Below are positions 2,083 to 50,068 of a stretch of DNA of 64,000 bases, piece by piece. The notes under the pieces are model-generated. The model did no database searches. It was not told the DNA's origin and saw only the letters and a list, made by a program, of their open reading frames with translations. A program made the position numbers and the translations under genes. How positions within the stretch are numbered: position 1 is the first letter of the stretch; every line of letters begins with the position of its first letter. Source of the DNA: a virus. The stretch is taken from the IMG/VR virus record IMGVR_UViG_3300032046_000022, positions 3,261-67,260 of that record. The stretch is one strand, 5' to 3'.

Positions 2083-3867
2083 ATGGCAACACCCACGCTG
2101 GGCAGTCCGCCAACCACGATCAACGCGGCGGATGTCAACACGAACTGGCTGATCACAGTCACTGCCGACTCGGAGTTCAAGAAGGAAGGCACGAACTCCA
2201 TGTCGGGCACCCTGCGTAATGATCTGTCTACGTGTCAGTACGGTCCTGTGACCGGCATCAGCATGGCGAGCCAGCACATGCGATGCTGGATCAACTTCGG
2301 CGCACTGCCCTACTTGGATACTGAAGCTGGCAGCGGGATGGAGTTCTGGGTGACGGACGGGACAAACACAGCCTACTGGATTGTGTTTGGTTCCGACACC
2401 TATTTCGGCGGCTGGAAAAACGTCATCGTTAATTTTGAGGGAACACCCAGTTCAGGGACAAAGCCGACAGGCAGCGTCACGACCTGGGGGTTTCGCTTCA
2501 ATCGCACAGCCGCGCCAGCAAACAAGATCAACACATGGGTCGATGCGCTGCGCTACGGCAACGGCTACGTCATCACAGGTGGGACTTCCGGCGACAAGGT
2601 GACGCTGGACAACATCTACACGGTGGACAAGGCCAGCGCCTACGGAGTTGTGGACAAAGTAGAGGGAGTGTTCTTTGGTTATGGCAAGCTGACCTTCGGC
2701 AACGGCGCGACCACGACCTACATCAACATCACTGGGCAGGTGTTGGTTTTCACCAATTCCAGAGTCGCCACCGGACTGTACGCGCTTATAGGGCAGGGGG
2801 CAGGCTGCGACATCACCATCAGCGCATCGGTGTTCAATTCTTCGGGGACGACGGATACCACGCGGTACGCCATCGACATGGACGACGCGAACCTCGCGGC
2901 CTTGTCGATGACGGCCAATTTCATCACACGTGCGGCGGCCTGCACGTTCAAGAGCGGGCAGACGGTTACAGGTAACACGTTCGACAACTGCGGCCAGATC
3001 ACGCCAGCAGGCGCGAACCTGTCCGGCAGCACGGTCAAGGGCTACGCGGGGACGGCGGACACGGCGGCACTGGTGTGGGACGTGAACACGGACCCGGACG
3101 GCTTGTTGGACAACATAGTGTTCACCAAGGGGTCAGCAGCAGCGCACGCGATTCAGCTTGGGCTGACCAGTCCGACCACGATCAATCTGAACGGGATCAC
3201 GTTCGCCAGCTACAACGCCGCAAACTCGCAGAATGATTCAGCTATACTTGTTTCCCGCACGACGGGTACAGTCACGATCTATGCCAATGGCTGCACGGGG
3301 ACAGTCAGTTACAAATCAGCCGGGGCAGCAGTTGAAATCATTCAGGATTCGGTTGCTTTCTCCGTCACGGTGAAAGACACAGCCGTGCCGCCAGTGGTTA
3401 TCAACAACGCGCTGGTGTTAGTGCTGGCTTCGGACGATACAGGGCCGATGCCCTACAACGAAACGGTGACGAGCATCACGAACGTCGGGACGACAGCAAC
3501 AGTGGCGCATACCGGACACGGCATGTTGACTAACGACAAGGTGCAGATTACAGGCGCGTCGCTGTGGCAGAACAATGGCGTGTTTTCGATCACCAGGACA
3601 AACGACAATGAATACACGTACACCTTGCCATCCGCCCCCGGTAGCAGTCCGACAGGTACGATCAAAGCGACCTACGCGGCGCTGTACGGTCTGACAAGCA
3701 GTGGCGTCGTTAGTAGCAGTCGTGTGTTCACAACGGATCAACCAATTATAGGGCGGGCGCGAAAGTACGGGACATCACCGCCTTACTATCAAACTGCGAA
3801 CTTCACGGGAATCATAGACTCGGTAACTGGATTCGCTGTGACCGTTCAATTACTTCCGGACGCATAA
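2083..3867 (+). CDS. Tail fibre/spike-like protein, 594 aa
   Basis: T/G/S-rich with a beta-helix-like middle; C-terminal TATVAHTGHGMLTNDKVQITGA motif of a type seen in phage tail proteins. Confidence 0.55.
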   Translation: MATPTLGSPPTTINAADVNTNWLITVTADSEFKKEGTNSMSGTLRNDLSTCQYGPVTGISMASQHMRCWINFGALPYLDTEAGSGMEFWVTDGTNTAYWIVFGSDTYFGGWKNVIVNFEGTPSSGTKPTGSVTTWGFRFNRTAAPANKINTWVDALRYGNGYVITGGTSGDKVTLDNIYTVDKASAYGVVDKVEGVFFGYGKLTFGNGATTTYINITGQVLVFTNSRVATGLYALIGQGAGCDITISASVFNSSGTTDTTRYAIDMDDANLAALSMTANFITRAAACTFKSGQTVTGNTFDNCGQITPAGANLSGSTVKGYAGTADTAALVWDVNTDPDGLLDNIVFTKGSAAAHAIQLGLTSPTTINLNGITFASYNAANSQNDSAILVSRTTGTVTIYANGCTGTVSYKSAGAAVEIIQDSVAFSVTVKDTAVPPVVINNALVLVLASDDTGPMPYNETVTSITNVGTTATVAHTGHGMLTNDKVQITGASLWQNNGVFSITRTNDNEYTYTLPSAPGSSPTGTIKATYAALYGLTSSGVVSSSRVFTTDQPIIGRARKYGTSPPYYQTANFTGIIDSVTGFAVTVQLLPDA

Positions 3868-4127: not shown

Positions 4128-4271
4128 ATATCAACGACTACGCGGCGCACGTGCTTACTGAAGCGGCAAAGGCGTACGATGAGGGTGACAAGGCTGAGGC
4201 CGTGCGCCTGCTGGATGTGTTGATTCAAGTGATTGTGGAAAAGAGGGACGCAATCTCGAAAGAGTTGTGAA

Positions 4272-4895
4272 ATGGCGGTCACGATAGACTGGACAATGAA
4301 GATCATCTCGATCCCGAAGTCGGACTTGACGCTGGTGCAGTCCGATCCGTTCGAGGTGCGCGAACTTGATCTTGACTGGTTCAGGTTGCAGCTCAAAGAC
4401 CTTGAGGACAGCGCTGAAGGGATAGTCTGCCCCGACACGCATCGCCACAATACCGAGGTCACGCTGGGTGGTCTGACCTTCGCTCGCGTGATCGAGATCA
4501 TCAACGGCTACACGGTCTCGTTTGAGAATGGCAACTACGCGGTGAACCTTGTGGGTGCGAACTCGAATGTCGGGGACGTCACCAATCTGAACGAGGTTTC
4601 CGTGCGCACGCAGAACTCGGCCGGTTTGATCGTAAGCGAGACCGCAGACATCAACGCCATCCTCGCGTCGATTGGCGTGGCAATACTGGATGATCAGAGC
4701 GTGGAATCTGGCATATCGCTGCGCAACACTCAGCGTCTGATGCTTGCTGCGCTGGCAGGGATTCTAAGTGGGGCTGACGGTACGACGGTGACAATAAAGA
4801 ACGCAAAGGCGGGGGGCGGCGACAAGAACCGAATTGTGGCGACTGTGGATGAATTCGGAAACAGGACAGAACTGACTTACGATCTAACGAGCTGA
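4272..4895 (+). CDS. Virion structural protein
   Basis: MAVTIDWT start; C-terminal RIVATVDEFGNRT motif typical of phage tail-associated proteins. Confidence 0.5.
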   Translation: MAVTIDWTMKIISIPKSDLTLVQSDPFEVRELDLDWFRLQLKDLEDSAEGIVCPDTHRHNTEVTLGGLTFARVIEIINGYTVSFENGNYAVNLVGANSNVGDVTNLNEVSVRTQNSAGLIVSETADINAILASIGVAILDDQSVESGISLRNTQRLMLAALAGILSGADGTTVTIKNAKAGGGDKNRIVATVDEFGNRTELTYDLTS

Positions 4896-4896
4896 C

Positions 4897-5295
4897 GTGA
4901 ATGCTGCGAGATATTTTACACTTCGTTATTGGGCGCACAGATACTTTGCGATTCGCCCATACATCTCCGTTGTCCATGAAGCTGTTTGGCCTTTTGTCGC
5001 TGAGTCCAGGCTGTATGAATTTGAAAAGCAAAGGAGCTATCTATTCGTCGCGTCACAATATCAAGAGGCCGAAAGGACCGAGATTGTTTTTGTGGCTGAC
5101 CAGAAAATTGATTTCGCCACATCGTGCCCATGGATCGAGCTGGTGGCAGATTCTAGGATGTATGTGCATTCTGCCGGCCAGCGAAAGTTTTTGTTCTATG
5201 CCGCGCCGCTCGAGGAGTCGGAGAATCTTGGGCGAACATTTGCAGCGTTGCGGTCTTTTGATCACGCCGACAGCGCAAGAATAGGAACGATCTGA
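4897..5295 (+). CDS. Hypothetical protein
   Basis: Fills the gap in the operon, coupled to the next gene. Confidence 0.4.
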   Translation: MNAARYFTLRYWAHRYFAIRPYISVVHEAVWPFVAESRLYEFEKQRSYLFVASQYQEAERTEIVFVADQKIDFATSCPWIELVADSRMYVHSAGQRKFLFYAAPLEESENLGRTFAALRSFDHADSARIGTI

Positions 5296-7558: not shown

Positions 7559-7869
7559 TGGAGAGAATTATGATTTGGCTTTGGCTGGTGCTTGTACTAT
7601 TTGTGGCGTTGATTGCGCTCAGCGCGGGCCTGAATATTCGAAAGCGCGGTTTGCGCCGATATGTCTTCAATCTCTTGATCGGAGTTGATCAGTTCTTCAA
7701 CGCTGTGCTTGGTGGCGCGCCGGACGAGACTATCTCGAGCCGGTGCGGGCGTGGATGTGGACGATATTGGTACTGGACTCTTCTTGGAAAAATTCTAAAT
7801 GTGATCGATCCAGGACACATACAAGATGCGATGGCTAATGAAGAAGCGGACGCGCACCGTTCCGCTTAG
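7543..7869 (+). CDS. Conserved phage membrane protein
   Basis: DQFFNAVLGGAPDETISSR...IDPGH motif common in phage lysis regions. Confidence 0.55.
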   Translation: MEVPLMERIMIWLWLVLVLFVALIALSAGLNIRKRGLRRYVFNLLIGVDQFFNAVLGGAPDETISSRCGRGCGRYWYWTLLGKILNVIDPGHIQDAMANEEADAHRSA

Positions 7870-8329
7870 TCTGATATGCACTCTTCTTTCGTATGCCGCG
7901 TTCGCCGGCGACGTTAAATTAGTTTGGGATCCAAATAGCGAGACAGACCTTGCCGGCTATAAGGTGTATCGAGGCAACTCCTCGAGAACCTATGGCACTC
8001 CGGTTTCGCTTACGCTTGCACAGTCCAATCATCCAACTCCAGGCTACACGGCGACAGGATTAACTCCTGGAGCTACATACTTTTTTGCTGTGTCAGCGTA
8101 TAATACGGCCGGCCTAGAGAGCGGCTTTTCGAATGAAGTCTCAACAACTATTCCTACGGTGCTGGAAGGAGACTTGAATGGTGATTTGCAGGTGAATGTA
8201 GTCGACATCCAGCTGATGGTGAATACCATCCTTGGAGTAGCGACAACGGTTGGAGCGGACATGAACAAGGACGGGCAGGTGAATGTAGTTGATTTACAGC
8301 TTCTGATAAACAAGGTTCTTGGGAAATAA
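7826..8329 (+). CDS. Secreted FN3 + dockerin domain protein
   Basis: Signal peptide ending AFA; FN3 WDPNSETDLAGYKVY...YFFAVSAYN...ESGFSNEV; duplicated dockerin repeats GDLNGDLQVNVVD / ADMNKDGQVNVVD. Confidence 0.85.
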   Translation: MRWLMKKRTRTVPLSLICTLLSYAAFAGDVKLVWDPNSETDLAGYKVYRGNSSRTYGTPVSLTLAQSNHPTPGYTATGLTPGATYFFAVSAYNTAGLESGFSNEVSTTIPTVLEGDLNGDLQVNVVDIQLMVNTILGVATTVGADMNKDGQVNVVDLQLLINKVLGK

Positions 8330-9416: not shown

Positions 9417-10124
9417 ATGTTAATAGATATGGCTGAGTATAAGGCGCAATCAAGTCCGCGTAGGATCATTCCTCCAAGACTCGCACCACTCCAGCTGTTA
9501 AAAAAGCAAACCGCTCAAGTCCAGCAATTCGAAGTGCAAAATTTGGCTTCTGTTTTCATGGATTTGTATCGACAGAAATATGGACTCAAGTTTGTCAATT
9601 TGAATAGAACGGCAGACCAGACGGCGCTCCGGCGCATCATCGTGATGTGCCAGCATAACGGCTGGCCGGTGAATGATTTTGTCGAGTATAACGTTCTGTG
9701 GTATAAGCAAAACCTTCCATACAGACCGTTGCCGACAAATTTTTGCGGCCAAAAGGCCGAGGATCGATACGAATCGTTTCTCCGCCGCGAAGGTTATATA
9801 ACAGCAGATGCGCCGGTGCCAACTCGACGGCGCGAGGAAGTTGATTCTATTGACGCAACGCGAGAGCGTGTCCGTTTGATGAGGATAAGACAGCAGCTTC
9901 CGGAACAGGCAGAAGAAGCGGCGGTCGAATACGCGAATGGAATTTCTGCCGGCTCCACTGAGCCGGCCAAGCCGCCAACAACTTGGATTAGATACACAAG
10001 GGAGCAACTGGTCGAGCTGCGCAAACAGCAAGTCTGGGCTGAAGCCAAAGAAGAATATATGAGAAGGTGGAGAGAGGAAGTGATTTATGGCCGCACCGCA
10101 GAATCTGAGGATGGACAATTTTAA
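9417..10124 (+). CDS. Hypothetical replication protein upstream of the helicase
   Basis: 235-aa ORF overlapping the helicase start; function inferred from position only. Confidence 0.45.
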   Translation: MLIDMAEYKAQSSPRRIIPPRLAPLQLLKKQTAQVQQFEVQNLASVFMDLYRQKYGLKFVNLNRTADQTALRRIIVMCQHNGWPVNDFVEYNVLWYKQNLPYRPLPTNFCGQKAEDRYESFLRREGYITADAPVPTRRREEVDSIDATRERVRLMRIRQQLPEQAEEAAVEYANGISAGSTEPAKPPTTWIRYTREQLVELRKQQVWAEAKEEYMRRWREEVIYGRTAESEDGQF

Positions 10125-11457
10125 TGGATTCGATTCAGGCTTTATAGATTCGCTTTTGCATTTGATGGTTTCGGACGTCAAATTCATGCGCGAGAATGAG
10201 GCCGGACTGAGAGCGGAGCTATTCGTAGACGACTTGCGAATGAAACTGGCTGATATAGCGCTGAAGTTCTACAAGTCGAGCGGTTGCGTGGCCAAGAATT
10301 TGTACTTGGATTTTATAAGCAAGATGTGCGATGATGAGCGTCTTCCAGAGGCGCGGATTCGTTTGCTGAAAGAGAAGGCGAGCGAGATACAGAAGGCGAG
10401 CGCAAATGCGGACTATGTCTCGTCGAGGCTCGAGCAGTATTTCTCTTTTGCAAAACTGAAAACGCTTCGTTACCAGTTGGACCGAATGATTGACTCTGGT
10501 GATGTGGAAGGCGCAAAGGGCGCGGTGAGAGCTACACAAATCGAGATCGGCAAGAATGGTCACAAGCCGGTGGATTATTTCGCGAATATTTCGCAGCGTG
10601 TTTTGCGTCGCGAGACTTTGCAGACGCAGGAGGATGGCGTTCAATTTTTGATTCCGACGCTTCATCAGAAGGGAGTGTTCGCGCATCGTGGCGAGATAAC
10701 GCTCGTGATCGCGCCGTCAAAGCGCGGCAAATCTGTCTTCCTCACCCATATCGGCCGGTGTGCAATTTTCACAGGCCACAACGTCCTGCACGTGAGCCTC
10801 GAGAATCCGATCTCGATGGTTGAGGACCGATATGATGCGATGCTGAGCGGGCTGGAAGTTGAACATTTGCGGCTTCTGGCTGATCGGCTCCAAACTAAAA
10901 TTGAGAAAGCCGCTGAGATGGCAAAAGGTCGACTGTATATTCTTTGGAAGATGGCCAGAACTTATTCGCCGATAGATTTGAAAGCGGATGTGGAGCGGAT
11001 GCGGATGGAGGGAAAACGGATCGACACGGTGATTATAGATTATGGCGAGCTATTGAAGCCGGTGGAGCGCCATGGCGGAGAATCCTCGATGCGCGCTATG
11101 CGCGATGATATTTTTGTGAACTTGCGCGGCATAGCTACAAAGTTGGATTTCGTATGCGTGACAGCTCAGCAGACGCCGTTGAAAAAGCGAACCAAGTTTC
11201 GGATCTATATGGAAGATGGCCAGGAGTCGAGCATGCCGGCTCAACACAGCAGTTTGATTATGACGCTGAACCAAACAAACGAGGAACAAGCTGCTGGTGA
11301 GATGCGACTTTATGTCGATGGATATTGGCATGGTCCGTCTGGTAAGCAAATTGGAGATATTCTTTTGAAACAGGATCTTGCGCGCATGCAATTTTGTCTA
11401 AAAGAGATTCCTGTTTTGCAAGGCGTGGAGGCTGTGACGGCGGCGACTTCGCCATAG
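10087..11457 (+). CDS. dnaB: Replicative DnaB-family (SF4) helicase
   Basis: Walker A APSKRGKS, HVSLEN, VIIDYGELL, TAQQ motifs. Confidence 0.85.
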   Translation: MAAPQNLRMDNFNGFDSGFIDSLLHLMVSDVKFMRENEAGLRAELFVDDLRMKLADIALKFYKSSGCVAKNLYLDFISKMCDDERLPEARIRLLKEKASEIQKASANADYVSSRLEQYFSFAKLKTLRYQLDRMIDSGDVEGAKGAVRATQIEIGKNGHKPVDYFANISQRVLRRETLQTQEDGVQFLIPTLHQKGVFAHRGEITLVIAPSKRGKSVFLTHIGRCAIFTGHNVLHVSLENPISMVEDRYDAMLSGLEVEHLRLLADRLQTKIEKAAEMAKGRLYILWKMARTYSPIDLKADVERMRMEGKRIDTVIIDYGELLKPVERHGGESSMRAMRDDIFVNLRGIATKLDFVCVTAQQTPLKKRTKFRIYMEDGQESSMPAQHSSLIMTLNQTNEEQAAGEMRLYVDGYWHGPSGKQIGDILLKQDLARMQFCLKEIPVLQGVEAVTAATSP

Positions 11458-11471
11458 ACGAGTTTTGGATT

Positions 11472-11826
11472 TTGTGGCGCAGGCATGTGTGCCGGTGGCT
11501 TTCAGTCTGGGTGCTCCATGTAGAGTGGAGGGGCACGCCCGTGCTGATTCCAAGGCTACTGCAATTTCATACCGGCATGGGGTCATGCGATCCCACCTGC
11601 GCCACTCAAGTTGTGGGTGCAGTCCAATGGTGGAGCTAGATAATTCAACAATTAGCCAAATGGTTGAATTGATATCTCACAAGATTGCTCTGGCTGAGGC
11701 GCGTGCCTTACTGCATCCACTCAAGTTGTGGAGACCGTGATGGGAACCAAGCCCCATATAACTGATGCAAGAGGGATACTTGCAGATGACGTTATGCCCG
11801 ATCCAGGACACGGGTCTCCACTCAAG
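11472..11826 (+). ncRNA. Tandem array of three structured RNA units (TTGTGG...CCACTCAAG)
   Basis: Three 10-12 bp closing stems with different sequences but identical termini, internal hairpins, no credible ORF. Confidence 0.55.
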
Positions 11827-12062
11827 AATGCCAGCCGACCGGCAGGAGGATGAGATGACAAGGAAGCTGGATACTGATTACTTGGTTCTGAAGCGGTGTA
11901 CGAAGGAACTTCTCAAATCGTCAAATGCGAGAATGCTCAAGGCCAATCTAGAATTCCTCATGGAAAAGTTTGTGATTCATCCAGACAAGGAATGGCAACG
12001 GGATTTCTGGTCCAAGCGCAAGTAGCCGCCCGAGCCGCCGTAACGAGTGTGAAGGAGGGGGA

Positions 12063-12494
12063 ATGAGAGATTCTGACACAGAATACATTAAGCGAATGGG
12101 GGATCGGATCGCCGAGCTGGAACGCGATCGGCAGATGTACGTCAACTCCTCGGATCGACTTACGGCTCAGGTGAAGGAGCTGGAGGCCACAATTTCCGAA
12201 AAGGACAAGTGCCTATATGAACTGGAGGATGAGATCATTCGTTTACAGCCCATAATAGACGCAGAGAACAAGCGCATCGCGGAGCTGGAGGCCGAGCTTG
12301 CAAAGATCAGGGCGCGAACTTGCAAGGCGTGCGCTCACTGGTACGACGAGTACCACGATGGATTTGCTACCTGCTCCAAGTGGTCCTCCTACTCGTTACC
12401 GGCTGATCCGAGATGCGGCGGTACACACTACGTCAAGACAGGTAAAGATGGATTCTGCTACCTTTGGGCTGAGAAAGAATCGGAGAGCGTATGA
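12063..12494 (+). CDS. Coiled-coil + Cys-rich hypothetical protein
   Basis: RIAELE repeats, CxxC. Confidence 0.55.
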   Translation: MRDSDTEYIKRMGDRIAELERDRQMYVNSSDRLTAQVKELEATISEKDKCLYELEDEIIRLQPIIDAENKRIAELEAELAKIRARTCKACAHWYDEYHDGFATCSKWSSYSLPADPRCGGTHYVKTGKDGFCYLWAEKESESV

Positions 12495-12742
12495 GTCACC
12501 CCTTCATAGTCAAGATCAGTCTAGACAAGGCAGAAGTTCGCATCGCGGGGCTGGAGGCTGAGAATCTTGCCCTAGTGAAGATGCTCAAAAGGTACGAGTG
12601 GCAGTTCTTCGAGGGGGGAGTTGGATATCCCAACGATGAAGAGACTTGTGCTATTTGTGAGGCGAAGCGGAGTGAGGGACATACCGAGGACTGTGCTTAC
12701 AATAAGTTGATGAAGAGTCCTACAGCGAGGGCGGGGAAATGA
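12491..12742 (+). CDS. Hypothetical Zn-finger protein
   Basis: CAIC...GHTEDC. Confidence 0.5.
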   Translation: MSHPFIVKISLDKAEVRIAGLEAENLALVKMLKRYEWQFFEGGVGYPNDEETCAICEAKRSEGHTEDCAYNKLMKSPTARAGK

Positions 12743-12835
12743 GTGAAGGGGAATGCAGCCGAGAAGAACAGGAAACTTTTCAGGCCGAAAATACGCCTGT
12801 CGAATCTAATGGAATTTGAAAAGGAGGATGCCGAG

Positions 12836-13333
12836 ATGAAGATGACTTTTCAGGAATTCACTTTGAAGTATCGTGGGGCGTACAAGAGCGACGGACAACC
12901 ATATGTGTTTCCAGCTGACATCGATGCTGTGGCCGGAAGTACGGGACTCGATAAGGCGCAGATAGTTGAGTGGATTTCGGCGTGGTACGAGATACAAGCG
13001 GCGTATGTCAAAGAGAGAAATTGTATGCCATCTATTAAGGAGATCATTGCCGAGTACAATCGCGCTCACGGAATAGTGGAGCCATCTCCGCCTCCTCCTA
13101 TTGTCCCGATCGCGGTCCCGCCAAGAGATCCGGCCGCGACGGTGGGCACGATGTTTGGCAGATATCAGCCACCGCGCACGGTGCCAACGGGCGTGGTGTG
13201 TTTGGCTCAGCTTACGGTGGATCAGTTTGTGGTGCTTATGCACGAGCTGATGGATCAGCATTCTGCTCCGGTTGTAGACGAGAAGGTCGCGATGCGAGCG
13301 AAATTACAGGCGGCGCTGGCGGCGCTGGAGTAG
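12836..13333 (+). CDS. Hypothetical protein
   Basis: AGGAGG RBS before ATG 12836. Confidence 0.55.
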   Translation: MKMTFQEFTLKYRGAYKSDGQPYVFPADIDAVAGSTGLDKAQIVEWISAWYEIQAAYVKERNCMPSIKEIIAEYNRAHGIVEPSPPPPIVPIAVPPRDPAATVGTMFGRYQPPRTVPTGVVCLAQLTVDQFVVLMHELMDQHSAPVVDEKVAMRAKLQAALAALE

Positions 13334-13377
13334 TAATTTGGACAGTGGAAATCCCTTGGTGCAGATCGGAGAATAAG

Positions 13378-13887
13378 ATGGATTGGTTAAACTGGAAAAG
13401 TATCGCAACAACTCTGGCGCTGGGTGCTTTGGGCGTATGCGGTAATTGGGCGAAAGGAACTTATAACGAGTACAAGAACGTAGTCACCAGTATCAATGCG
13501 CACATGGTCGAGGAGGCGCAGCAGCAACAACAACAAATCGAGACCAGAGCGTTGCTTAAGCAGATCGCGGCGGACATAGGCGACGTGAAGAAGATGACAT
13601 TGACTATCATGGGTGTGGCGAAGGTTCAGAGTGATGGCGGAGACGAGGCGAGCGCTCTCGTCAATCTAAACGGTCGCGCCATGATGTATAAAGAAGGACA
13701 GCGCGTGCGCGTGACTAACATGGTGTCGGCAGAGCAGGAATCTGTGATCGTCAAGATAAATGGCACGTTCACGATGCCAGACGAGGATAAACTTCTGTTG
13801 TTGTCGAAGAAGGCTGGGGCGATGCTTAGTCTCCAGCCGAATCAAGTGGCGAGAGTCAAGCTGGAGCCTGTATCGGGAGAGAAATAA
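13378..13887 (+). CDS. Membrane-anchored protein with RlpA-like double-psi beta-barrel C-terminus
   Basis: N-terminal hydrophobic helix, coiled coil, VRVTN...SVIVKING...LLLSKKAGAML...VKLE. Confidence 0.5.
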   Translation: MDWLNWKSIATTLALGALGVCGNWAKGTYNEYKNVVTSINAHMVEEAQQQQQQIETRALLKQIAADIGDVKKMTLTIMGVAKVQSDGGDEASALVNLNGRAMMYKEGQRVRVTNMVSAEQESVIVKINGTFTMPDEDKLLLLSKKAGAMLSLQPNQVARVKLEPVSGEK

Positions 13888-15683: not shown

Positions 15684-15716
15684 AAATGGCCAAAAGTTAT
15701 TTTTTGGCCATTTTTT
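15684..15716 (+). terminator. Rho-independent terminator
   Basis: AAATGGCCAAAA/TTTTGGCCATTT stem plus T run. Confidence 0.7.
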
Positions 15717-15889
15717 GTGTAAAGGTGTGCCCGTAACTGGTTGATTCTTATCAAGATCTGGGACACAAAAAAATGCATCATTTCTGGTGTGTGTTCATGC
15801 ACCTTCTGTGGATCGACACTGTCCGCGAATGCATAAACATTGGAGAAAATAATCCTTTTTATCTGAAAGCATTAGGCGCAAGATAATGG

Positions 15890-16456
15890 TATGAGATACG
15901 AAATACATACAGGGAGGGGGGTGGCGGGAAGCCAAACGAAATAACTCGCGGAAACGCGACCCCAACTGAGGCCGAAAACGGCTGACTGGGGCAACGCCGG
16001 AAGCGGGAAAAAAGAAAGGGCAGAGAGCGCGGTGGCCTCGGCAGATGGTGAAGTCCGGCGGCGAAATTCCGACCGGAGCCAAACTCTCATAAGAGAAAAA
16101 ACCCAGCGGGAAAAGGGGCGGTAAGACGCCAACCGAAAACAAAAAAATCCAGAGCCAAAACAAACGAGACCCCGAAAGCGATGATCCACGAAAGTGGGAA
16201 GCCAGTAGGCAAAATCTCTGAGGCGACGAGCAGACTGAACTGCTTGCAGACCGGTAACAGTCCGGTTACGGACGAAATCTAGGACTCGTGATACTCCATC
16301 CCAGAATAGCAGCGCAGAATCCAAAGCGATTTGAAACTGCGGCACGCGCGAAAAAACGGATCGACGGTAAGATGGACGGGTAGCGAGCGACGGAGAGTAG
16401 AAAAAACTGATGTGGCGAAGACGCGCGAAAGCGCTGAGCCGTCTCTAAAATGAATT
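15890..16456 (+). ncRNA. Candidate large structured ncRNA (about 570-600 nt)
   Basis: No + strand ORF, purine-rich, many hairpins with GAAA-type loops; ends at the first twister ribozyme. Confidence 0.6.
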
Positions 16457-19875: not shown

Positions 19876-19948
19876 GCAGAGTGTGACCGGCGCTCAATGC
19901 CGGTCTTAATGCGCCGACTCAAGGTGGGTCGACCGGTCACAAGTCCGG
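19876..19948 (+). ncRNA. Twister ribozyme 7
   Basis: Same core, P3 CGACTCA/TGGGTCG. Confidence 0.85.
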
Positions 19949-20506: not shown

Positions 20507-20579
20507 GCAGAGTGGGACCGGCGCTCAATGCCGGTCTTAATGTGCCGACTCAAGGTGGGTCGACCGGTCACAAGTCCGG
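20507..20579 (+). ncRNA. Twister ribozyme 8
   Basis: Same core, TAATGT variant giving G-U in P2. Confidence 0.8.
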
Positions 20580-21476: not shown

Positions 21477-21546
21477 CAGAGTGGACCGGTGTTGAGTGCC
21501 GGTCTAATGCGCCGACTCAAGGTGGGTCGACCGGTCACAAGTCCGG
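21476..21546 (+). ncRNA. Twister ribozyme 10
   Basis: Same core, P1 GACCGGT/GCCGGTC, P3 as in copy 7. Confidence 0.85.
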
Positions 21547-22197: not shown

Positions 22198-22370
22198 CCA
22201 GCAAGTGTGGGCGAACGCGGGCCAAATCCGCAATCGCCAAATCGCTGTCTCCAACAGCGCATTCCGGTGACTGAGCAGGAACATCGGGAAATCGCGTCGA
22301 TTTCAAGGCTCGCGCTTCACCGCGCCGCCATTTCCTGCTCACAAATGCGCTTGTAGAAAAGGAGACTAAA

Positions 22371-22913
22371 ATGGTGAGTGCGACATTTGTGGGTTGTTTC
22401 AAGATTTTGCGGGAAGGTTTGCGTCGCGAGTTGACTCAGCGGGGCCATTTGGTCACGCATTATTTCGAGTCGATGGATGGGCAACCGCTCGCTCTCAATT
22501 TCCAGAATAGCGCAGATGACACAATCACTGTGTTCTGGGGACCGAAGAACAATCGACACAAGCTGGTTGATCCAGACTCGAAGATGCTGGCTGATGCAAT
22601 CGAAAAATCTCTTGACGAAAAGGTTCAGCCTCCGCCGGCGATAAAAAGATCGTCACCGCAACAAGCCGCTGCGCCAAAACAGAAACCGCAACAAGCCGCT
22701 GCGCCAAAACAGAAACCGCAAGGTGGTGTTTTTGTAACAGATGCTGATTATGCCGAGCTGCAGAGATTGCGCTCGATGGCCAATCACGGCGTTTGGATCG
22801 GCAATGCTGTTTATGCCGCGATGAAGGAAGAGATGCGCATCGGCTATGTCCCGATGGAAGCGCGGCAGAAAATAAACACTTCATTTGATAGGTTATGGAG
22901 GATGATGGCGTGA
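22371..22913 (+). CDS. Hypothetical protein with a 10-aa tandem repeat
   Basis: AAGGAG RBS; PQQAAAPKQK x2. Confidence 0.6.
   Translation: MVSATFVGCFKILREGLRRELTQRGHLVTHYFESMDGQPLALNFQNSADDTITVFWGPKNNRHKLVDPDSKMLADAIEKSLDEKVQPPPAIKRSSPQQAAAPKQKPQQAAAPKQKPQGGVFVTDADYAELQRLRSMANHGVWIGNAVYAAMKEEMRIGYVPMEARQKINTSFDRLWRMMA
22655..22721 (+). repeat. 30-bp tandem duplication
   Basis: ACCGCAACAAGCCGCTGCGCCAAAACAGAA x2 plus a partial copy. Confidence 0.9.
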
Positions 22914-30653: not shown

Positions 30654-33600
30654 ATGGCTGAATTCGTCCACCTACATGTTCACGATCAATATAGCATGCT
30701 GGATGGAATTTGCAAGACCACGGAAATGGTACAGAAGGCAAAGGCGCTTGGATACAAGGCGCTTGCTCAGACTAATCACGGGAATGTCGATGGCGTTGTC
30801 AAATTTTACAAGGAATGCAAAAGGCAGGATGTGAAGCCGATCGTTGGCTGCGAGCTGTATGTGGTCGACAAATTCGAGAAGGTAAAGGGACTCAAACGAT
30901 ATCACACGCTGGCGCTGGCCAAAAACTTTGCTGGCTTTCAGAATATTATGCGGGCGCTCACGGTGGCGAACCAAGAGCAGTTCTACCATCGTCCGCTTTT
31001 GACTTGGGAACAAGTGCTTGGTCTCGAAGATGTGGTGATAATGAGCGCTTGTGTGAGCGGCGTGCTGTCGCATCCGAATTTTGTAGATTTGGTCAAGAAA
31101 TTCAAGAAGAGATTTGGTCAAGACTTTTTTCTCGAGACGCAGCCGATGCTGAACTGGAAGCCGCAGACGGAGGTGTTCAAGAAGGCGCTCGAAATATCAA
31201 AGCGTGTCGGCATTCCGATCGTGGCCACAAACGACATTCACTATCTGAACGAAGACCAAAACACCGCGCACGAGGCGGCGCTTTGTATAGGGCAACATGC
31301 GTTCATGGACGATGCGCGAAACAAGAAACCGCGCTGGAAATTTGATGTCACCGGCTTGTATATGAAAACATCAGCAGAGATGCGAGAGACGCTGGTGGCC
31401 GAAGGTTGTCCGCAGAAGCTGGCTGACCAGATGTTAGAAAACAGTCTCCAGCCGGCAGACCGGTGCAATTTCGAGATTCCTAAAATGCTTGTGAGCCTTC
31501 CGATGCCGAAGCGCTTTGCCCATATCAAAAAACCAGCGGAAAAAATCTTGAGTGATTTGGCGTATGCTGGTCTGGATAAGATGGGCAAGTCTGGCGAGAA
31601 TAAGTATCGTGAGCGGCTCCAACACGAGCTGAATGAAGTCTGCAGTCTGGGTTTTCCGGTTTATTTTCTTGTGCTCACAGACTTGATTTGGTGGTGCAGA
31701 GAACACAATCTGATGGTTGGTCCTGGGCGCGGCTCTGTTGGCGGCAGTCTGCTTGCGTGGTGTCTCGAGATCACAAGCGTTGACTCTGTGGCGTGGAATC
31801 TTTCGTTTGAGCGGTTCATCAGTCCTGGCCGCATAGACTTGCCGGATATAGATGTTGATTTTCAGGACGACCGGCGTGAGGAGATCATCAGTTATTTGCG
31901 CAAGCAATATGGCGAGGAGAATGTGGCGCAGGTGCGCACGTTCAACGAGATGCACGGGAGACAAGCGCTCCGTGATGCCTCGAGAGTTTTTAGTGTCTCG
32001 AACGAAGAAGCCAGCCGTGCTGCCAAGGCGATCATAAAGCGGAGCGGCGGCGATGCGCGGGAGGACTATTCGATCGAGGATGCCTTTTCGCTTTTTGAAG
32101 AGTGCAAAGAATTCAAGCGCAAATATCCAAAGGTGGTAAAGGTTGCGCAAGCGCTCGAGGGAATTATTCGGCAAGGCGGAATACATGCCGCCGGCGTGGT
32201 GGTCTCGAAGGAAACGCTGTATGACGGCAAGCGCTGTGTGGTGATAAACGCGAAGGATAATGTCCGCTCAGTCAATTGGGATAAGCGCGATCTGGATGAT
32301 TTCGGACTGATGAAGCTGGATGTTCTTGGGCTGAGTACGCTGACGGTTCTGTGCAGGGCGAAGGAACTGATAATGGAGAACCACGCCGTGGATGTGGTAT
32401 ACGAAAACATTCCGCTGGATGATCAGAAGGTGCTCGAGAATTTTCGCAAGGGAAACACGATCGGGGTGTTTCAGTTTGGCACGACCGGCTTGAGTGTATA
32501 TTGTCGAGAAGTTGGTATCGAGGATTTTAATCGGCTGGTTGACGTGAACGCGCTCTGGCGTCCTGGCACACTGAAGTCTGGGATGACTACCGAATATTGT
32601 GAGATAAAAAACCAGCACAAAGCGGTCACATCAGTTTCGGAATTTTATGACAAATTGACCGCTGACACTTTCGGGATCATGCTATATCAGGAGCAGATCA
32701 TGCAGGTGTTATACCAAGGTGCGGGCATCGGTTGGCGCACAGTGGACACTATTCGCAAAGTGATTTCAAAAAGCGAAGGAACGGCGAAGCTGGCCAGCTT
32801 CAAAAAGGAATTCATGGACGGCTGCGCTCTCCGGGAAACTATGAGCGAGGAAGAAGCGAGCGCGGTATTTGACAAGATGGTATTTTTCGGCTCGTATGGC
32901 TTCAACAGAAGTCACGCAGTGGCATACACCATGCTCGGCTATTGGACTATGTGGCTGAAAGTTTATTATCCGACAGAATTTTATTGTTCGCTGATAAACT
33001 TCGCCACTATCGACAAGCGTACCGAATACGTTGATGATGCGCGCAAGAACGGTGTCAAGGTTTTGCTGCCGGACATAAACTTTTCCGACAAGAATTGGAA
33101 AATAGATGGACTGAATACCTTGCGTGCTGGCTTGAATAGCGTGTCCTCAGTTTCCGACCGCTCTGCAAACGAGATCATTCGGGCGCGTGCGAGCAAGTGG
33201 ATCGATCTTGAATCATTTCTGAAAGCGGTGCCGCGTCGTGTCGTGAATAAGCGCGTGGTGCAGAACCTTGGTCGTGCCGGCGCTCTCCGATCCTTGTGTG
33301 TTGGCGTGCTGTCAAGTCAGAATATAGATGAAGTGTTTGGCGGCAAATTCGAGTTGGATCCAGACGACGAGGCGGAGGCTGTGCTTAGATTGGTTGGCGA
33401 CGTTGTTGATTTTAGTCCGTCTTCTGATCCGTTGTATAGAATCTCTGCACTTGTGCGACGTGTAAAAAAAAGGATCGAATTGCAGACGGTGAAGAGTGTG
33501 CTCAACAAAGAATTGGCTGGCGGCTCCGAAGCGAATTTTATCGGGCGCATCGACAAAATCAAATACGGATATCGCGATCGCATAACGAAAGACGCGACAA

Positions 33601-34451
33601 GTCGCGGATTTGCGGACGACCTGGGCGGCGCGTATTGCAACTTCTTCGATGGCACCAGCCATATTATGCTGACGTTCGATCCTAATCTCACACACAAAGG
33701 CGAAAATATCACCTATAAGAAGCGAATCGAAGCGGCAGAAGATTGTTGGGTGCTGTTGCGCACTTCTGTTATGGCGACGCGCCATGGCCGCGATATAAAA
33801 TTGCTCGTGAGGAAATTAACTTTCCTCGAGGAGCTGACCGGTGAAGTTGATTTGGCTTTTTTGCCCATGTTGCCGCTGGGCAAAAGGGAAGACAATCCTT
33901 GTCGGCTATTCGAGGAAGAACTTGCCGACTGCACAGCGTGTTCGCTGCGGCAGAGTTGTCGCGCTCCGGTGCCTCCTAGCATCGGCAAATTTGATGCCAT
34001 GGTAATAGCAGAGGCTCCAGGAGAGAGGGAGGATAAGGCCGGCTCCGGTTTGGTTGGTCGATCTGGAAGCGTGCTATGGAATGCGCTTGCTGAGCGGAAA
34101 ATTTTGCGTCCATATTTATATGTGAACAATGTCGTCAAATGTAGACCGCCGGACAATAAACTTTCGAACATATCCTATGCTCACAAATGCGGACAACTCT
34201 GGTTGGACCGCGAAATAAGAGCGGTGAATCCGCTTGTGGTTTTGGTGATGGGCGGAACGGCGGCGGACTTTTTTACTCGCGACGCAAAAATCACAGAGCT
34301 GTGTGGCAAGGTTATTTGGAATAGCAAATATGAATGCTGGGTGGTGTATTGTTTGCATCCTGCAGCGACACTTTATGAGCCTTCTAAAAGAGCAGAGTTT
34401 TTGAAAGCAATAGACAAATTTGCCGCATTGTTGGTAAGACTGTATAAATAA
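30654..34451 (+). CDS. dnaE: DNA polymerase III alpha (family C) with C-terminal family-4 uracil-DNA glycosylase domain
   Basis: PHP HLHVHDQYSMLDG, GRGS, PDIDVDF, YGFNRSHA; C-terminal CTACSL...AEAPG...VKCRPP...HPAA. Confidence 0.93.
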   Translation: MAEFVHLHVHDQYSMLDGICKTTEMVQKAKALGYKALAQTNHGNVDGVVKFYKECKRQDVKPIVGCELYVVDKFEKVKGLKRYHTLALAKNFAGFQNIMRALTVANQEQFYHRPLLTWEQVLGLEDVVIMSACVSGVLSHPNFVDLVKKFKKRFGQDFFLETQPMLNWKPQTEVFKKALEISKRVGIPIVATNDIHYLNEDQNTAHEAALCIGQHAFMDDARNKKPRWKFDVTGLYMKTSAEMRETLVAEGCPQKLADQMLENSLQPADRCNFEIPKMLVSLPMPKRFAHIKKPAEKILSDLAYAGLDKMGKSGENKYRERLQHELNEVCSLGFPVYFLVLTDLIWWCREHNLMVGPGRGSVGGSLLAWCLEITSVDSVAWNLSFERFISPGRIDLPDIDVDFQDDRREEIISYLRKQYGEENVAQVRTFNEMHGRQALRDASRVFSVSNEEASRAAKAIIKRSGGDAREDYSIEDAFSLFEECKEFKRKYPKVVKVAQALEGIIRQGGIHAAGVVVSKETLYDGKRCVVINAKDNVRSVNWDKRDLDDFGLMKLDVLGLSTLTVLCRAKELIMENHAVDVVYENIPLDDQKVLENFRKGNTIGVFQFGTTGLSVYCREVGIEDFNRLVDVNALWRPGTLKSGMTTEYCEIKNQHKAVTSVSEFYDKLTADTFGIMLYQEQIMQVLYQGAGIGWRTVDTIRKVISKSEGTAKLASFKKEFMDGCALRETMSEEEASAVFDKMVFFGSYGFNRSHAVAYTMLGYWTMWLKVYYPTEFYCSLINFATIDKRTEYVDDARKNGVKVLLPDINFSDKNWKIDGLNTLRAGLNSVSSVSDRSANEIIRARASKWIDLESFLKAVPRRVVNKRVVQNLGRAGALRSLCVGVLSSQNIDEVFGGKFELDPDDEAEAVLRLVGDVVDFSPSSDPLYRISALVRRVKKRIELQTVKSVLNKELAGGSEANFIGRIDKIKYGYRDRITKDATSRGFADDLGGAYCNFFDGTSHIMLTFDPNLTHKGENITYKKRIEAAEDCWVLLRTSVMATRHGRDIKLLVRKLTFLEELTGEVDLAFLPMLPLGKREDNPCRLFEEELADCTACSLRQSCRAPVPPSIGKFDAMVIAEAPGEREDKAGSGLVGRSGSVLWNALAERKILRPYLYVNNVVKCRPPDNKLSNISYAHKCGQLWLDREIRAVNPLVVLVMGGTAADFFTRDAKITELCGKVIWNSKYECWVVYCLHPAATLYEPSKRAEFLKAIDKFAALLVRLYK

Positions 34452-48382: not shown

Positions 48383-50068
48383 GTGCCAGAGCTGTGGGAG
48401 CGAATCTATAAAGTTGCGGACGCAGCGCAGCCGAAATTCCGGACTGCGCTTTTGGATGTCTTCGATCAAGTCAAATATGATGTAAAATTTAGAGCGCTTC
48501 AACGGGCGCTCGGCAATGGCGACACTGTGGCTGCTTGGAATTCCATCCCATGGGAAGCCATTCCGGATATGGAGGCAACTCAAGATCTAAACAAAATCCT
48601 CGGAGACATATTCAAAAATGCCGGCTCCAAAACTATGGCTGATATGATGGGGAAGCCAAAGGTCGAATTCAACGCGATCGACGAGGACACGGCGACGTTC
48701 TGGGCGCAGAACGAAAGCAGCTATTTGATAACGCACATCACAGAGCAGATGCGTTCTAGTATTCAGAGAGCGGTCCAGAACGCTTTTCTTGACGGTCTCG
48801 CGCCACCAAACAAGCAGGTGTTTACTGTCCTGGAGCACGCGATCAATATCCGGGAAGATCTTGGTTTGAATGCAAGGCAGGTTAGCTCCATGGATAAATA
48901 TCGGAGCGATTTGCGCTGGAGCGGAATTACCGGACCAGCATATGACAAACTTGTCGCGAAGCGGCAGCATGAATTTCTCCTGGCGCGGACCGACATGATA
49001 GCGCGCACAGAAACAATTCAATCGGCGGCTGAAGGCCAGCGCGCAACCTGGGACATGCAAATTGCCGAAGGTCGACTTGATTCGGCGCGGTGGGAGGTCG
49101 AATGGCTTGTCACGCCGGATGATGTTACTTGCAAGCGGTGTTTTTCTATGAGGGGAAAGCGCCGCTCTATCAACGGCGTGTACCAAGGTGTGCCATATTC
49201 GGGCGGACCGGCAGGTCGTGGTACGAAAGGTCCAACACTTCATCCGAATTGCCGATGCACAGAACGGCTGGTCCCGAGGCGCGGGCGCGCCTCGGGACCG
49301 AAGAGAAAGACTCGCACAGCGCTGCGGGCGCAACAGGTGAAAATTCCTCCGACCTTTGTGCCGCCGCAGACTCCACCATCATCTTCGCAGACTCCTGAAT
49401 ATGATGGTGTAAAGTTTGAATGGCCGGCGGAAGTTGCTCGTGAGTATCCAGAGATGATGAGGGCGATTGGCAGCTCTACACGAATCGACGATTGGGATCT
49501 TGACGTTATTCGCCGGCACGTGAGAGATATCAATCTGATCCCGACGGAGGCGTTACAAAAACTCGCTAATTCAGGCGTGATGTTTCACATCGGAGACGGT
49601 GGTGTCGTTAAGCTGGACAGGATGGAGCGCCTAAAAGGTGTCCAGCCTCGCGGCTGGTCAGAGGGATCGATGTGGGATGATGTCGGCGGCTGTTATGGCA
49701 ACAACTGGGTTTTGGTCGGGAACGCGAGGGGCGGCAGTGTGAGCGTGGCGCTTCACGAAGCAGGGCACGCTGTGGGTGAGCATTATTATGTCAGAAGTCG
49801 GCGTGAATTTCAGAAGGTAGGTGTCGCTCTGGAATCGGTTGAGCACAGTCAAACCTGGAAGAAGATTCACACGCGGTTATACAAGGCCGGAGTTCTCGGA
49901 GATTATTATAGGCAGGGAGGAGCGGGCGCATATGCGGGAATGGAAGAGCTGTGGGCGGAGTCGTTCGCGACGTATCACAAGTCCGGCGCGTTGGAGTGTA
50001 CTCGCCAATATGGAAAGGCTGTAACGAGATACATCGAATATGCGATGAAGAGCGGAAAGGCGATGTGA
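48383..50068 (+). CDS. MuF-like minor head protein fused to an HEXXH metallopeptidase domain
   Basis: IARTE, TCKRC, PTLHPNCRC; Pro linker; LHEAGH...EELWAESFA. Confidence 0.82.
   Translation: MPELWERIYKVADAAQPKFRTALLDVFDQVKYDVKFRALQRALGNGDTVAAWNSIPWEAIPDMEATQDLNKILGDIFKNAGSKTMADMMGKPKVEFNAIDEDTATFWAQNESSYLITHITEQMRSSIQRAVQNAFLDGLAPPNKQVFTVLEHAINIREDLGLNARQVSSMDKYRSDLRWSGITGPAYDKLVAKRQHEFLLARTDMIARTETIQSAAEGQRATWDMQIAEGRLDSARWEVEWLVTPDDVTCKRCFSMRGKRRSINGVYQGVPYSGGPAGRGTKGPTLHPNCRCTERLVPRRGRASGPKRKTRTALRAQQVKIPPTFVPPQTPPSSSQTPEYDGVKFEWPAEVAREYPEMMRAIGSSTRIDDWDLDVIRRHVRDINLIPTEALQKLANSGVMFHIGDGGVVKLDRMERLKGVQPRGWSEGSMWDDVGGCYGNNWVLVGNARGGSVSVALHEAGHAVGEHYYVRSRREFQKVGVALESVEHSQTWKKIHTRLYKAGVLGDYYRQGGAGAYAGMEELWAESFATYHKSGALECTRQYGKAVTRYIEYAMKSGKAM

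Follow-up and report, generated by a model that had tools for sequence, protein, structure and literature searches.

Non-coding RNAs of phages are poorly catalogued. Among the described systems of arrayed or intergenic structured elements, the phage T4 cluster contains tRNAs and the 'species 1 and 2' RNAs, which are processed from one transcript, and type III toxin-antitoxin systems contain ToxI-like repeats of ~34–44 nt, near-identical to one another, which are cut by the toxin endoribonuclease and are followed by a terminator and the nuclease toxin gene. Repetitive extragenic palindromic (REP) sequences, bacterial interspersed mosaic elements (BIMEs), miniature inverted-repeat transposable elements (MITEs) and attC sites are intergenic imperfect palindromes that sometimes occur in tandem; in attC, structure is conserved over sequence. 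Here we describe a locus that is probably akin to known phage loci in which small structured RNAs are transcribed together or lie between cistrons, and that matches no curated RNA family. It is an array of three abutting structured units in the genome of a tailed double-stranded DNA phage represented by the IMG/VR virus record IMGVR_UViG_3300032046_000022. The record is classed as linear, is 67 kb long and is ~84% complete; the window, i.e. the whole stretch of DNA analysed here, covers 64 kb of it (positions 3,261–67,260), and all coordinates refer to the window unless stated otherwise.

Each of the three units is enclosed by a closing stem of 9–13 bp, and neighbouring units meet at the junction CCAC-TCAAGTT-GTGG. 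The first-pass annotation, which had been made from the letters alone, proposed three closing stems, with TT before and TCAAG after each unit; all three pairings are indeed present and the flanking letters are as described, the unit ends reading TTGTGG ... CCACTCAAG. The features of the array are listed below, with folding energies, z scores against dinucleotide shuffles and ensemble probabilities of being unpaired; L037 is a metagenome contig that carries the only true relative found.

11458–11473, + strand: spacer of 16 nt that ends in TT (from the sequence); not common to L037, in which homology starts at 11475.
11474–11605, + strand: unit 1 (U1), 132 nt; -65.1 kcal/mol, z -3.72.
11606–11612, + strand: linker 1, TCAAGTT; P unpaired 0.53; site of the 187-nt insertion in L037.
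11613–11720, + strand: unit 2 (U2), 108 nt; -40.0 kcal/mol, z -3.95.
11721–11727, + strand: linker 2, TCAAGTT; P unpaired 0.73.
11728–11821, + strand: unit 3 (U3), 94 nt; -34.0 kcal/mol, z -3.33.
11822–11828, + strand: terminal linker, TCAAGAA; P unpaired 0.68.
11829–11849, + strand: small hairpin UGCC-AGCCGACC-GGCA, then the ribosome-binding site (RBS) GGAGG at 11845–11849 (from sequence and fold).

The closing stem of U1 (GTGGCGCAGG at 11474–11483 with CCTGCGCCAC at 11596–11605) consists of 10 Watson-Crick pairs, that of U2 (GTGGGTGCAGT at 11613–11623 with ACTGCATCCAC at 11710–11720) of 11 pairs including one G.U, and that of U3 (GTGGAGACCGTG at 11728–11739 with CACGGGTCTCCAC at 11809–11821) of 12 pairs with a one-base bulge. 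The interiors of the three units are unrelated in sequence. U1 contains a long arm (GUGCCGGU/ACCGGCAU) with a distal hairpin and, adjoining the closing stem, the 3' hairpin GGGGUC-AUGC-GAUCCC; U2 contains a four-way junction that includes the AAUUCAAC/GUUGAAUU and GAGGC-GCGU-GCCUU hairpins; and U3 contains the hairpins AUGGG/CCCAU and UGCAAG/CUUGCA. Every interior hairpin named in the first-pass annotation was recovered in the minimum-free-energy folds. The unit end CCACTCAAG has exactly three copies in the window, all within the array, and the 15-mer junction CCACTCAAGTTGTGG has two copies in the 67-kb genome, likewise both within the array.

In order to assess the strength of these folds, each unit was compared to 200 dinucleotide shuffles on both strands. 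On the + strand none of the 200 shuffles folded as well as the native sequence, for each of U1, U2 and U3, contrary to the possibility considered at the outset that folding would be no better than that of dinucleotide shuffles. On the - strand the z scores were -2.18, -2.13 and -3.62 for U1, U2 and U3, with 4, 6 and 0 of the 200 shuffles folding as well, respectively, and the folds of U1 and U2 were 9–14 kcal/mol weaker than on the + strand, because each of their G.U pairs corresponds to an A.C mismatch in the complementary strand. When the region 11460–11860 was folded in one piece the same three units were retained, and in the ensemble of 11400–11900 the closing stems were paired (P unpaired 0.00–0.14) and the linkers mostly free (0.53–0.73). 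Single stems of at least 9 bp spanning 45–200 nt are frequent (58 in the window versus 37–57 in five shuffles); the array is the only chain of three abutting stems among the window, the flanks in L037 and two related phage genomes (records G001 and G002), and a scan of both related records in full for abutting closed units returned none. Among GTGG...CCAC pairs lying 60–150 nt apart, stems of at least 9 bp are reached by 3 of 386 on both strands of the two related genomes and by 5 of 66 on the + strand of the window, three of the latter five being those of the array. Given that only ~1% of the GTGG..CCAC pairs have stems of this length, the array is not a product of chance; it is real and statistically secure. 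The constant junctions and unrelated interiors, to which the first-pass annotation had drawn attention, thus belong to units that are non-random and fold autonomously.

L037 is 6,977 nt long, and its homology to the window is confined to 11475–11612 (95.0% identity over 140 columns) and 11609–12294 (98.1% over 686 columns). The common block takes in the array, the gene of 56 aa downstream of it and, from the gene after that, the part encoding residues 1–83; outside the block L037 is unrelated to the window, and there is no helicase gene near its array. The homology begins at the first base pair of U1. The L037 copy of U1 (4656–4789 of the contig) is 95% identical, that of U3 (5103–5196) is identical, and between U1 and U2 there are 187 extra nt, inserted exactly in the linker and flanked by TCAAGTT and TTCAGTT. 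The insert contains the following elements.

4797–4831 of L037: hairpin N0, z -4.27.
Next part of the insert: N1, a closed three-way-junction unit with the stem GUGGGUGCUG/CAGCACCCAC, z -4.67, then a 9-nt linker.
Last part of the insert: N2, a weaker closed unit, z -1.35, then the linker TTCAGTT.

The variation in unit number that had been anticipated for relatives is therefore seen in L037, and it occurs precisely at the linker. The closing helices of U1, U2, U3 and N1 have different sequences and all of them pair. Further variants were found in DNA contigs from four sediment metagenome runs; no RNA run was among the public runs with array sequence. In one assembly variant the distal arm of U1 (11499–11558) is replaced by 26 other letters and the closing helix is kept, and in another the 3' hairpin of U1 is exchanged for a different hairpin with a 6-bp stem and a tetraloop, the closing strand again being kept. 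The 187-nt insertion in the linker and the exchanges of the U1 arm and hairpin indicate that the locus is modular, with recombination breakpoints that, as judged from the aligned contigs, coincide with module borders. The extent of the common block further shows that the array and the 56-aa gene have passed jointly from phage to phage.

Searches for additional relatives were performed with the junction and with parts of the units. The 15-mer matched 29 stretches in viral_contigs, none with a closing stem longer than 6 bp, and the two-junction pattern, a 23-mer from U1 and a U2/U3 20-mer had no matches in that collection. In genome_contigs the junction pattern occurred in nine stretches, all with stems of 4–6 bp and hence attributable to chance, and in metagenome_contigs in four, L037 alone being real. 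The other three (L034, L035 and L036) were rejected as relatives, the first two representing one coding region and the third being coding as well, with stems of 4 bp as judged by eye. Blastn searches of 50,697 phage records with 10000–13500 or 11440–11860 returned no match.

Two hairpins of L037, N0 and one within a further closed unit designated UP1 (4150–4278; stem UGCCAGCCGU/ACGGCUGGCA, z only -1.86), have pyrimidine loops containing the anti-Shine-Dalgarno-like UCUCCUUUC. UP1 lies just upstream of the RBS of another gene. The N0 loop is mostly paired in the ensemble (P unpaired 0.29), and the AGGAG loop of N2 is complementary to it over 5 nt. Loops with UCUCCUUUC are not present in the window array, nor is the motif enriched in the window (26 matches against 22.1 expected).

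L037 also bears on the possibility that the region encodes a small protein, either of 88–91 aa (11465/11474–11740) or a peptide of ~37 aa over U2. The longer ORF, spanning U1 and U2, is open, and at the start of U1 L037 has ATG instead of GTG, preceded by GAGG. However, two single-T insertions in L037, which are also present in an independent assembly, shift the frame after ~14 codons, so that the U1-spanning products of the window and L037 would be unrelated. Since the period of U2 is 115 nt, the two identical junctions are in different frames. The only match of the longer ORF among 5.8 billion proteins was itself (one of four candidates), it has no Pfam or PHROG match, and the internal ATG is not preceded by a Shine-Dalgarno sequence.

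All long ORFs of the window are on the + strand. The gene content includes a terminase, a portal-like DUF4055 protein, a tail tube protein, DNA polymerase III alpha fused to a uracil-DNA glycosylase (UDG), RecA, ThyX and an SNF2 helicase. The array occupies a 400-nt gap, with a DnaB-like helicase gene on the left and the 56-aa ORF on the right.

10087–11457, + strand: DnaB-like replicative helicase, 456 aa, complete (PHROG 19, E = 4.9e-39; Pfam AAA_25).
11855–12025, + strand: 56-aa ORF with the RBS GGAGG at 11845–11849; the protein is 100% identical in L037.
12063–12294, + strand: 143-aa coiled-coil/Cys-rich ORF, 5' part; the block common to L037 ends here on the right.

In the nearest phages found via the helicase (L003 and L004, 53–56% identity) the helicase ends at the same place and is directly followed by the primase gene, the array and the whole 3-kb insert being missing; the segment 11458–14551, which comprises the array and several small ORFs, is therefore an insertion relative to these phages. 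No promoter- or terminator-like sites were found within 11458–11854 and, all genes being on the + strand, a transcript would most simply arise by read-through from the helicase gene. The 56-aa ORF has no Pfam or PHROG match; its protein atlas scores did not exceed 0.85, all to hypothetical proteins, and the top sequence match in the PDB had E = 0.17. Its AlphaFold2 model is a three-helix bundle (pLDDT 71), for which Foldseek retrieved nothing at E <= 0.001, and the family, atlas and fold searches revealed no nuclease or toxin signature.

Residues 1–83 of the 143-aa ORF are 94% identical to L037; the protein matched only coiled coils, and a search for relatives with the whole 143-aa protein gave none. 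In the sediment assemblies, pieces corresponding to 12020–12070 and 12173–12325, i.e. to this gene and its upstream RBS region, are scattered over many contigs, where the gene pieces show skips or replacements of 200–207 nt. The pattern points to strong mosaicism, within this phage population, of the gene family to which the 143-aa coiled-coil gene belongs.

The same phage carries 11 Twister-P5 ribozymes (Rfam family RF02684; 39.8–46.7 bits), all on the + strand between 16456 and 22197. Each of them occupies an intergenic gap shortly downstream of a stop codon, 10 of the 11 within ~30 nt of the next RBS, so that an operon of 11 small genes is punctuated by twisters. In the related records G001 and G002 there are 6 and 15 twister copies, respectively, and the region looks like a lineage-wide, ribozyme-processed polycistronic operon. 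Upstream of it, a strong terminator-like hairpin (15684–15713) is followed by ~700 nt without a convincing ORF, with a purine-rich stretch at ~15880–16450 leading into the first twister; the region 15684–16450 may be the promoter and leader of the twister operon. Downstream, the last twister is separated from the gene at 22371 by a 170-nt 5' untranslated region (UTR), which contains, at 22272–22341 on the + strand, a closed three-way-junction unit (stem UGAGCAGGAA/UUCCUGCUCA, -31.1 kcal/mol, z -3.85), and there is a long structured UTR at the equivalent place in G002.

The proposal that we tentatively prefer, and would place just short of probable, is that the locus is a modular intercistronic array of autonomous RNA domains that are cleaved in single-stranded linkers. 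It builds on what the present data support directly: the units carry a structure signal that favours one strand, they do not code for protein, they vary as modules, and they have been transferred with the neighbouring gene. The array would be transcribed on the + strand within an early polycistronic transcript of the replication module. The terminal helix of each module, 9–13 bp long, opens with GUGG and closes with CCAC, the constant single-stranded 7-nt linker UCAAGUU separating one module from the next, and a host or phage endoribonuclease would cut in the linkers. Such cutting would free compact RNAs of 94–132 nt with both ends locked in the terminal helix and would provide the mRNAs on either side, that of the helicase and the downstream one, with ends capped by a helix. 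The modules behave as exchangeable cassettes that are gained, lost and remodelled at the linkers, and the whole block, with the 56-aa gene that follows, moves between otherwise unrelated phages. A processed array is plausible in a lineage in which twisters cleave between cistrons. As a guess, the released RNAs might be protein-binding or decoy RNAs, since their folds are multi-branched and combine a conserved scaffold with a distal arm that can be replaced.

Several observations weigh against this proposal. In every case the same 56-aa gene follows immediately after the array, an arrangement that a 5' UTR acting in cis alone would explain equally well, and there are only two full copies, in which U2 and U3 are 95–100% identical, so that conservation is indistinguishable from recent transfer. 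The units differ between the window and L037 by 11 substitutions, eight at paired positions and three unpaired (two of these in one tetraloop). Six of the eight paired-site substitutions keep pairing, all via wobble that is possible on the + strand only, and two break a pair, in one case the pair that closes U1 at its outer end, where the homology begins; however, all eight are transitions, and as a random transition keeps pairing in ~55% of cases, six of eight is not significant (P about 0.2). No double compensatory change distinguishes the two copies. In U2 alone there are five substitutions, three in stems, all of which keep pairing, and two in the tetraloop; four of the five are synonymous in a frame open in both genomes, whereas all five are structure-neutral. 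N2 and UP1 of L037 fold little better than shuffles, and the interiors have no motif in common that would point to one common partner. Firmer support is provided by the closing helices, which differ yet pair, by the hairpin exchange that keeps the shape, and by the strand-asymmetric energies. RNA-level constraint and function are, in our view, likely.

The main rival to the processed array is that the units are cis-acting mRNA elements only, with no function in trans: structured spacers between cistrons that would block exonucleases, cap the 5' or 3' ends produced by cleavage, act as insulators or form the 5' UTR for the 56-aa ORF; we regard this as possible, if rather unlikely. Bacterial mRNAs are stabilised by terminal stem-loops within a few nt of a 5' end, and REP palindromes have this effect on the mRNA upstream of them. 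The constant position of the array upstream of the 56-aa gene, and its transfer with that gene, fit such a role, as do the unrelated interiors and the variable number of units, which are expected if only being folded matters. The same phage, moreover, carries the further closed three-way-junction unit at 22272–22341, which is part of a 5' UTR, and puts twister ribozymes before the RBSs of neighbouring operon genes. For protection, on the other hand, simple hairpins would suffice instead of multi-branch folds of 94–132 nt, a conserved scaffold with a replaceable distal arm is more typical of RNAs that bind something, and a mere barrier would not need a constant linker sequence.

A more far-reaching version of the processed array would be a new genetic element, an 'RNA cassette array', in which unrelated, autonomously folding small RNAs are joined by a linker that is both a processing site and a DNA recombination point, and which moves between unrelated phages with a small partner protein. 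We consider this quite unlikely; if true, it would mean that phages gain, lose and swap functional RNAs, e.g. RNAs that sequester host proteins or defence sensors as decoys or sponges, in an integron-like manner.

A role at the DNA level, with the junctions and inverted repeats serving in recombination and module shuffling, as mobile palindromes, or as single-stranded DNA hairpins for priming or as an origin, is distinctly improbable. In its favour are the start of the L037 homology at the first base of U1, the 187-nt indel placed exactly in a linker and the interior segments swapped in other assemblies, together with the location of the array between the helicase and primase genes. In T4-type phages, conserved promoter/stem-loop motifs (PeSLs) are reported to mediate cassette shuffling (PMC2839356, PMC4122927). 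The array in L037, however, is not near a helicase; the units are single-copy and absent from the two related phages and from the phage database, unlike a MITE family; and the excision circles, of 101–115 bp, would be implausibly small. Furthermore, the constraint concerns pairing within a unit across ~100 nt and not junction symmetry, the arms of junction 2 matching over 5 bp only, and on the other strand G.U becomes A.C, with U1 and U2 folding 9–14 kcal/mol worse. The small inverted-repeat DNA elements offered as an alternative in the first-pass annotation are disfavoured on the same grounds, every unit being single-copy and U1 and U2 folding better on the + strand. The breakpoints at the unit borders, as read from the contigs, nevertheless keep a DNA-level role alive for the linkers.

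It is very improbable that the units represent a new class of self-cleaving ribozyme, or substrates of such a ribozyme, with a link to this phage's own twister system. In a review (PMC6765202), bacterial self-cleaving ribozymes are described as clustering near each other and near phage genes, new classes having been found that way; there they are also said to be possibly involved in the processing of polycistronic transcripts, their biological roles being largely elusive. The array has eleven twisters 4.6 kb downstream, and the variable hairpin of three of the 11 resembles the array junction. Yet no ribozyme model reaches E = 10 in 11300–12000 or in the L037 array, the units have no conserved core beyond GUGG/CCAC and the linker, which a catalytic RNA would need, and by a rough count the resemblance could be due to chance. 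The hairpins in question (19910–19930, 20541–20561 and 21508–21528) read CGAC-UCAAGGUGG-GUCG, to be compared with the array junction CCAC-UCAAGUU-GUGG(GU); the rough chance probability is about 0.02–0.05, which makes this a lead only. Other twister hairpins (CUCCAUGGUGGAG) resemble short hairpins in U1 and U2. These resemblances may reflect chance, shared ancestry or a shared binding site.

The weakest alternative, a protein-coding gene, is scarcely credible and was rejected, as the frame is not kept in L037 and no homologue other than the query itself was found among the 5.8 billion proteins, so that the coding conservation named beforehand as a challenge to the RNA interpretation is not observed.

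A number of known identities were also considered for the array. ARAGORN detected no tRNA gene in the whole window, and Rfam covariance models (cmscan) gave no tRNA, tmRNA or tRNA-like match in 11300–12000 at E <= 10, and a tRNA or tRNA-like RNA was rejected on the grounds that neither ARAGORN nor the Rfam tRNA clan matched. At the gathering score Rfam retrieved only the twisters in the whole window and nothing in L037 or in the 3.3 kb beyond the window; at E <= 10 the single match in 11300–12000 was a chance one to RAGATH-25 (E = 2), upstream of the array, and 4100–5300 of L037 gave three chance matches (E 0.87–5.8). The cmscan check suggested in the first-pass annotation thus returned no Rfam family for the array. 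A CRISPR array, in which direct repeats of ~23–50 nt alternate with unique spacers of much the same length, was rejected, since the sole repeat is 15 nt present twice with a 9-nt third copy, and the 'spacers' would be 86–124 nt long with self-complementary ends; the earlier remark that neither a CRISPR nor a tRNA pattern was recognisable was borne out by ARAGORN, Rfam and the repeat search. Known self-cleaving ribozymes (twister, twister-sister, hammerhead, hatchet, pistol, hepatitis delta virus-like and hairpin) were likewise rejected: their models had no match at E <= 10 in 11300–12000 or in 4100–5300 of L037, and the same library finds the 11 twisters elsewhere.

A type III toxin-antitoxin antitoxin array was rejected on account of units of 94–132 nt, unrelated interiors, no terminator-like site and a 56-aa ORF that belongs to no family, and a dispersed palindrome of the MITE or REP type because the units are single-copy and have no match in the 50,697 phage records. 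When the array was compared by blastn-short with the window and with G001 and G002, only the 15-nt junction repeat was returned, with no matches of at least 14 nt beyond chance. An integron attC or cassette array was rejected as the ends, compared by eye with the consensus, misfit the RYYYAAC/GTTRRRY cores; the 36 window ORFs that were scanned (a part of the window ORFs) included neither an integrase nor a transposase, and there are no ORFs between the sites. Guide-like RNAs were set aside as the array has no complementarity of at least 14 nt to the rest of the phage genome beyond chance. Loop-loop (kissing) complementarity between units reaches 4–5 nt at most, and GGA motifs of the CsrA type are not enriched (array, 1.72 per 100 nt; window, 2.33).

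Elsewhere in the window, the ORF at 48383–50068 (+ strand) encodes a head-morphogenesis (Mu F-like) protein with a C-terminal ATLF-like domain (Pfam PF07737, E = 4e-14), a fusion of the type known from phage MuF polymorphic proteins. The DNA polymerase III alpha ORF (30654–34451, + strand; 1,265 aa) has PHP, NTPase, finger and HHH domains, its C-terminus being fused to the domain of the uracil-DNA-glycosylase superfamily. A small phage protein encoded at 7826–8329 (+ strand) combines fibronectin type III and dockerin type I domains, which may hint at a cellulosome-bearing or similar host.

If the modules are cut out as stable RNAs, the locus would exemplify a phage strategy of carrying several unrelated small RNAs in a compact, reshuffling locus and, because the breakpoints are at module borders, a tractable case of structured-RNA exchange between viruses. 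If they only protect mRNA ends, they would be a modest addition to the known mRNA-stability elements. Together, the array and the twister operon point to sediment phages that rely unusually heavily on RNA processing between cistrons.

Compared with the systems outlined at the beginning, REP/BIME, MITE and attC elements are similar to the units in being intergenic imperfect palindromes of ~60–140 bp; the array differs in being single-copy, in not having the attC cores and in having units that abut without cassette ORFs. The PeSL system of T4-type phages (PMC2839356, PMC4122927) likewise has short conserved motifs on either side of variable early-region cassettes, and it is at these motifs that close relatives differ by insertions, deletions or replacements; PeSL cassettes are reported to carry ORFs and promoter/terminator signals, whereas those of the array are non-coding folds without such sites. 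With the Twister-P5 ribozymes (RF02684) of the same phage the array has in common that structured RNA is placed between + strand cistrons, as well as the local junction resemblance, but it matches no twister model and shares no catalytic core with them, and its units abut instead of each preceding a gene. As in type III antitoxin arrays, a tandem RNA array lies directly upstream of a protein gene, with the proposed cuts at a constant inter-unit site. In contrast to ToxI, the units are 94–132 nt long with unrelated interiors, the 56-aa protein has no toxin signature and there is no terminator before the gene. The closest functional analogue would probably be a phage tRNA or stable-RNA cluster such as that of T4, judging by its organization: there, too, structured small RNAs with terminal helices and unrelated sequences are arranged head-to-tail with short linkers, are co-transcribed in the phage early region and include some members of unknown function. 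The array units are not tRNAs, lacking a T-loop and an unpaired 3' CCA, and unlike the T4 tRNAs they have closing helices of 9–13 bp instead of 7 bp and are joined by a linker of constant sequence.

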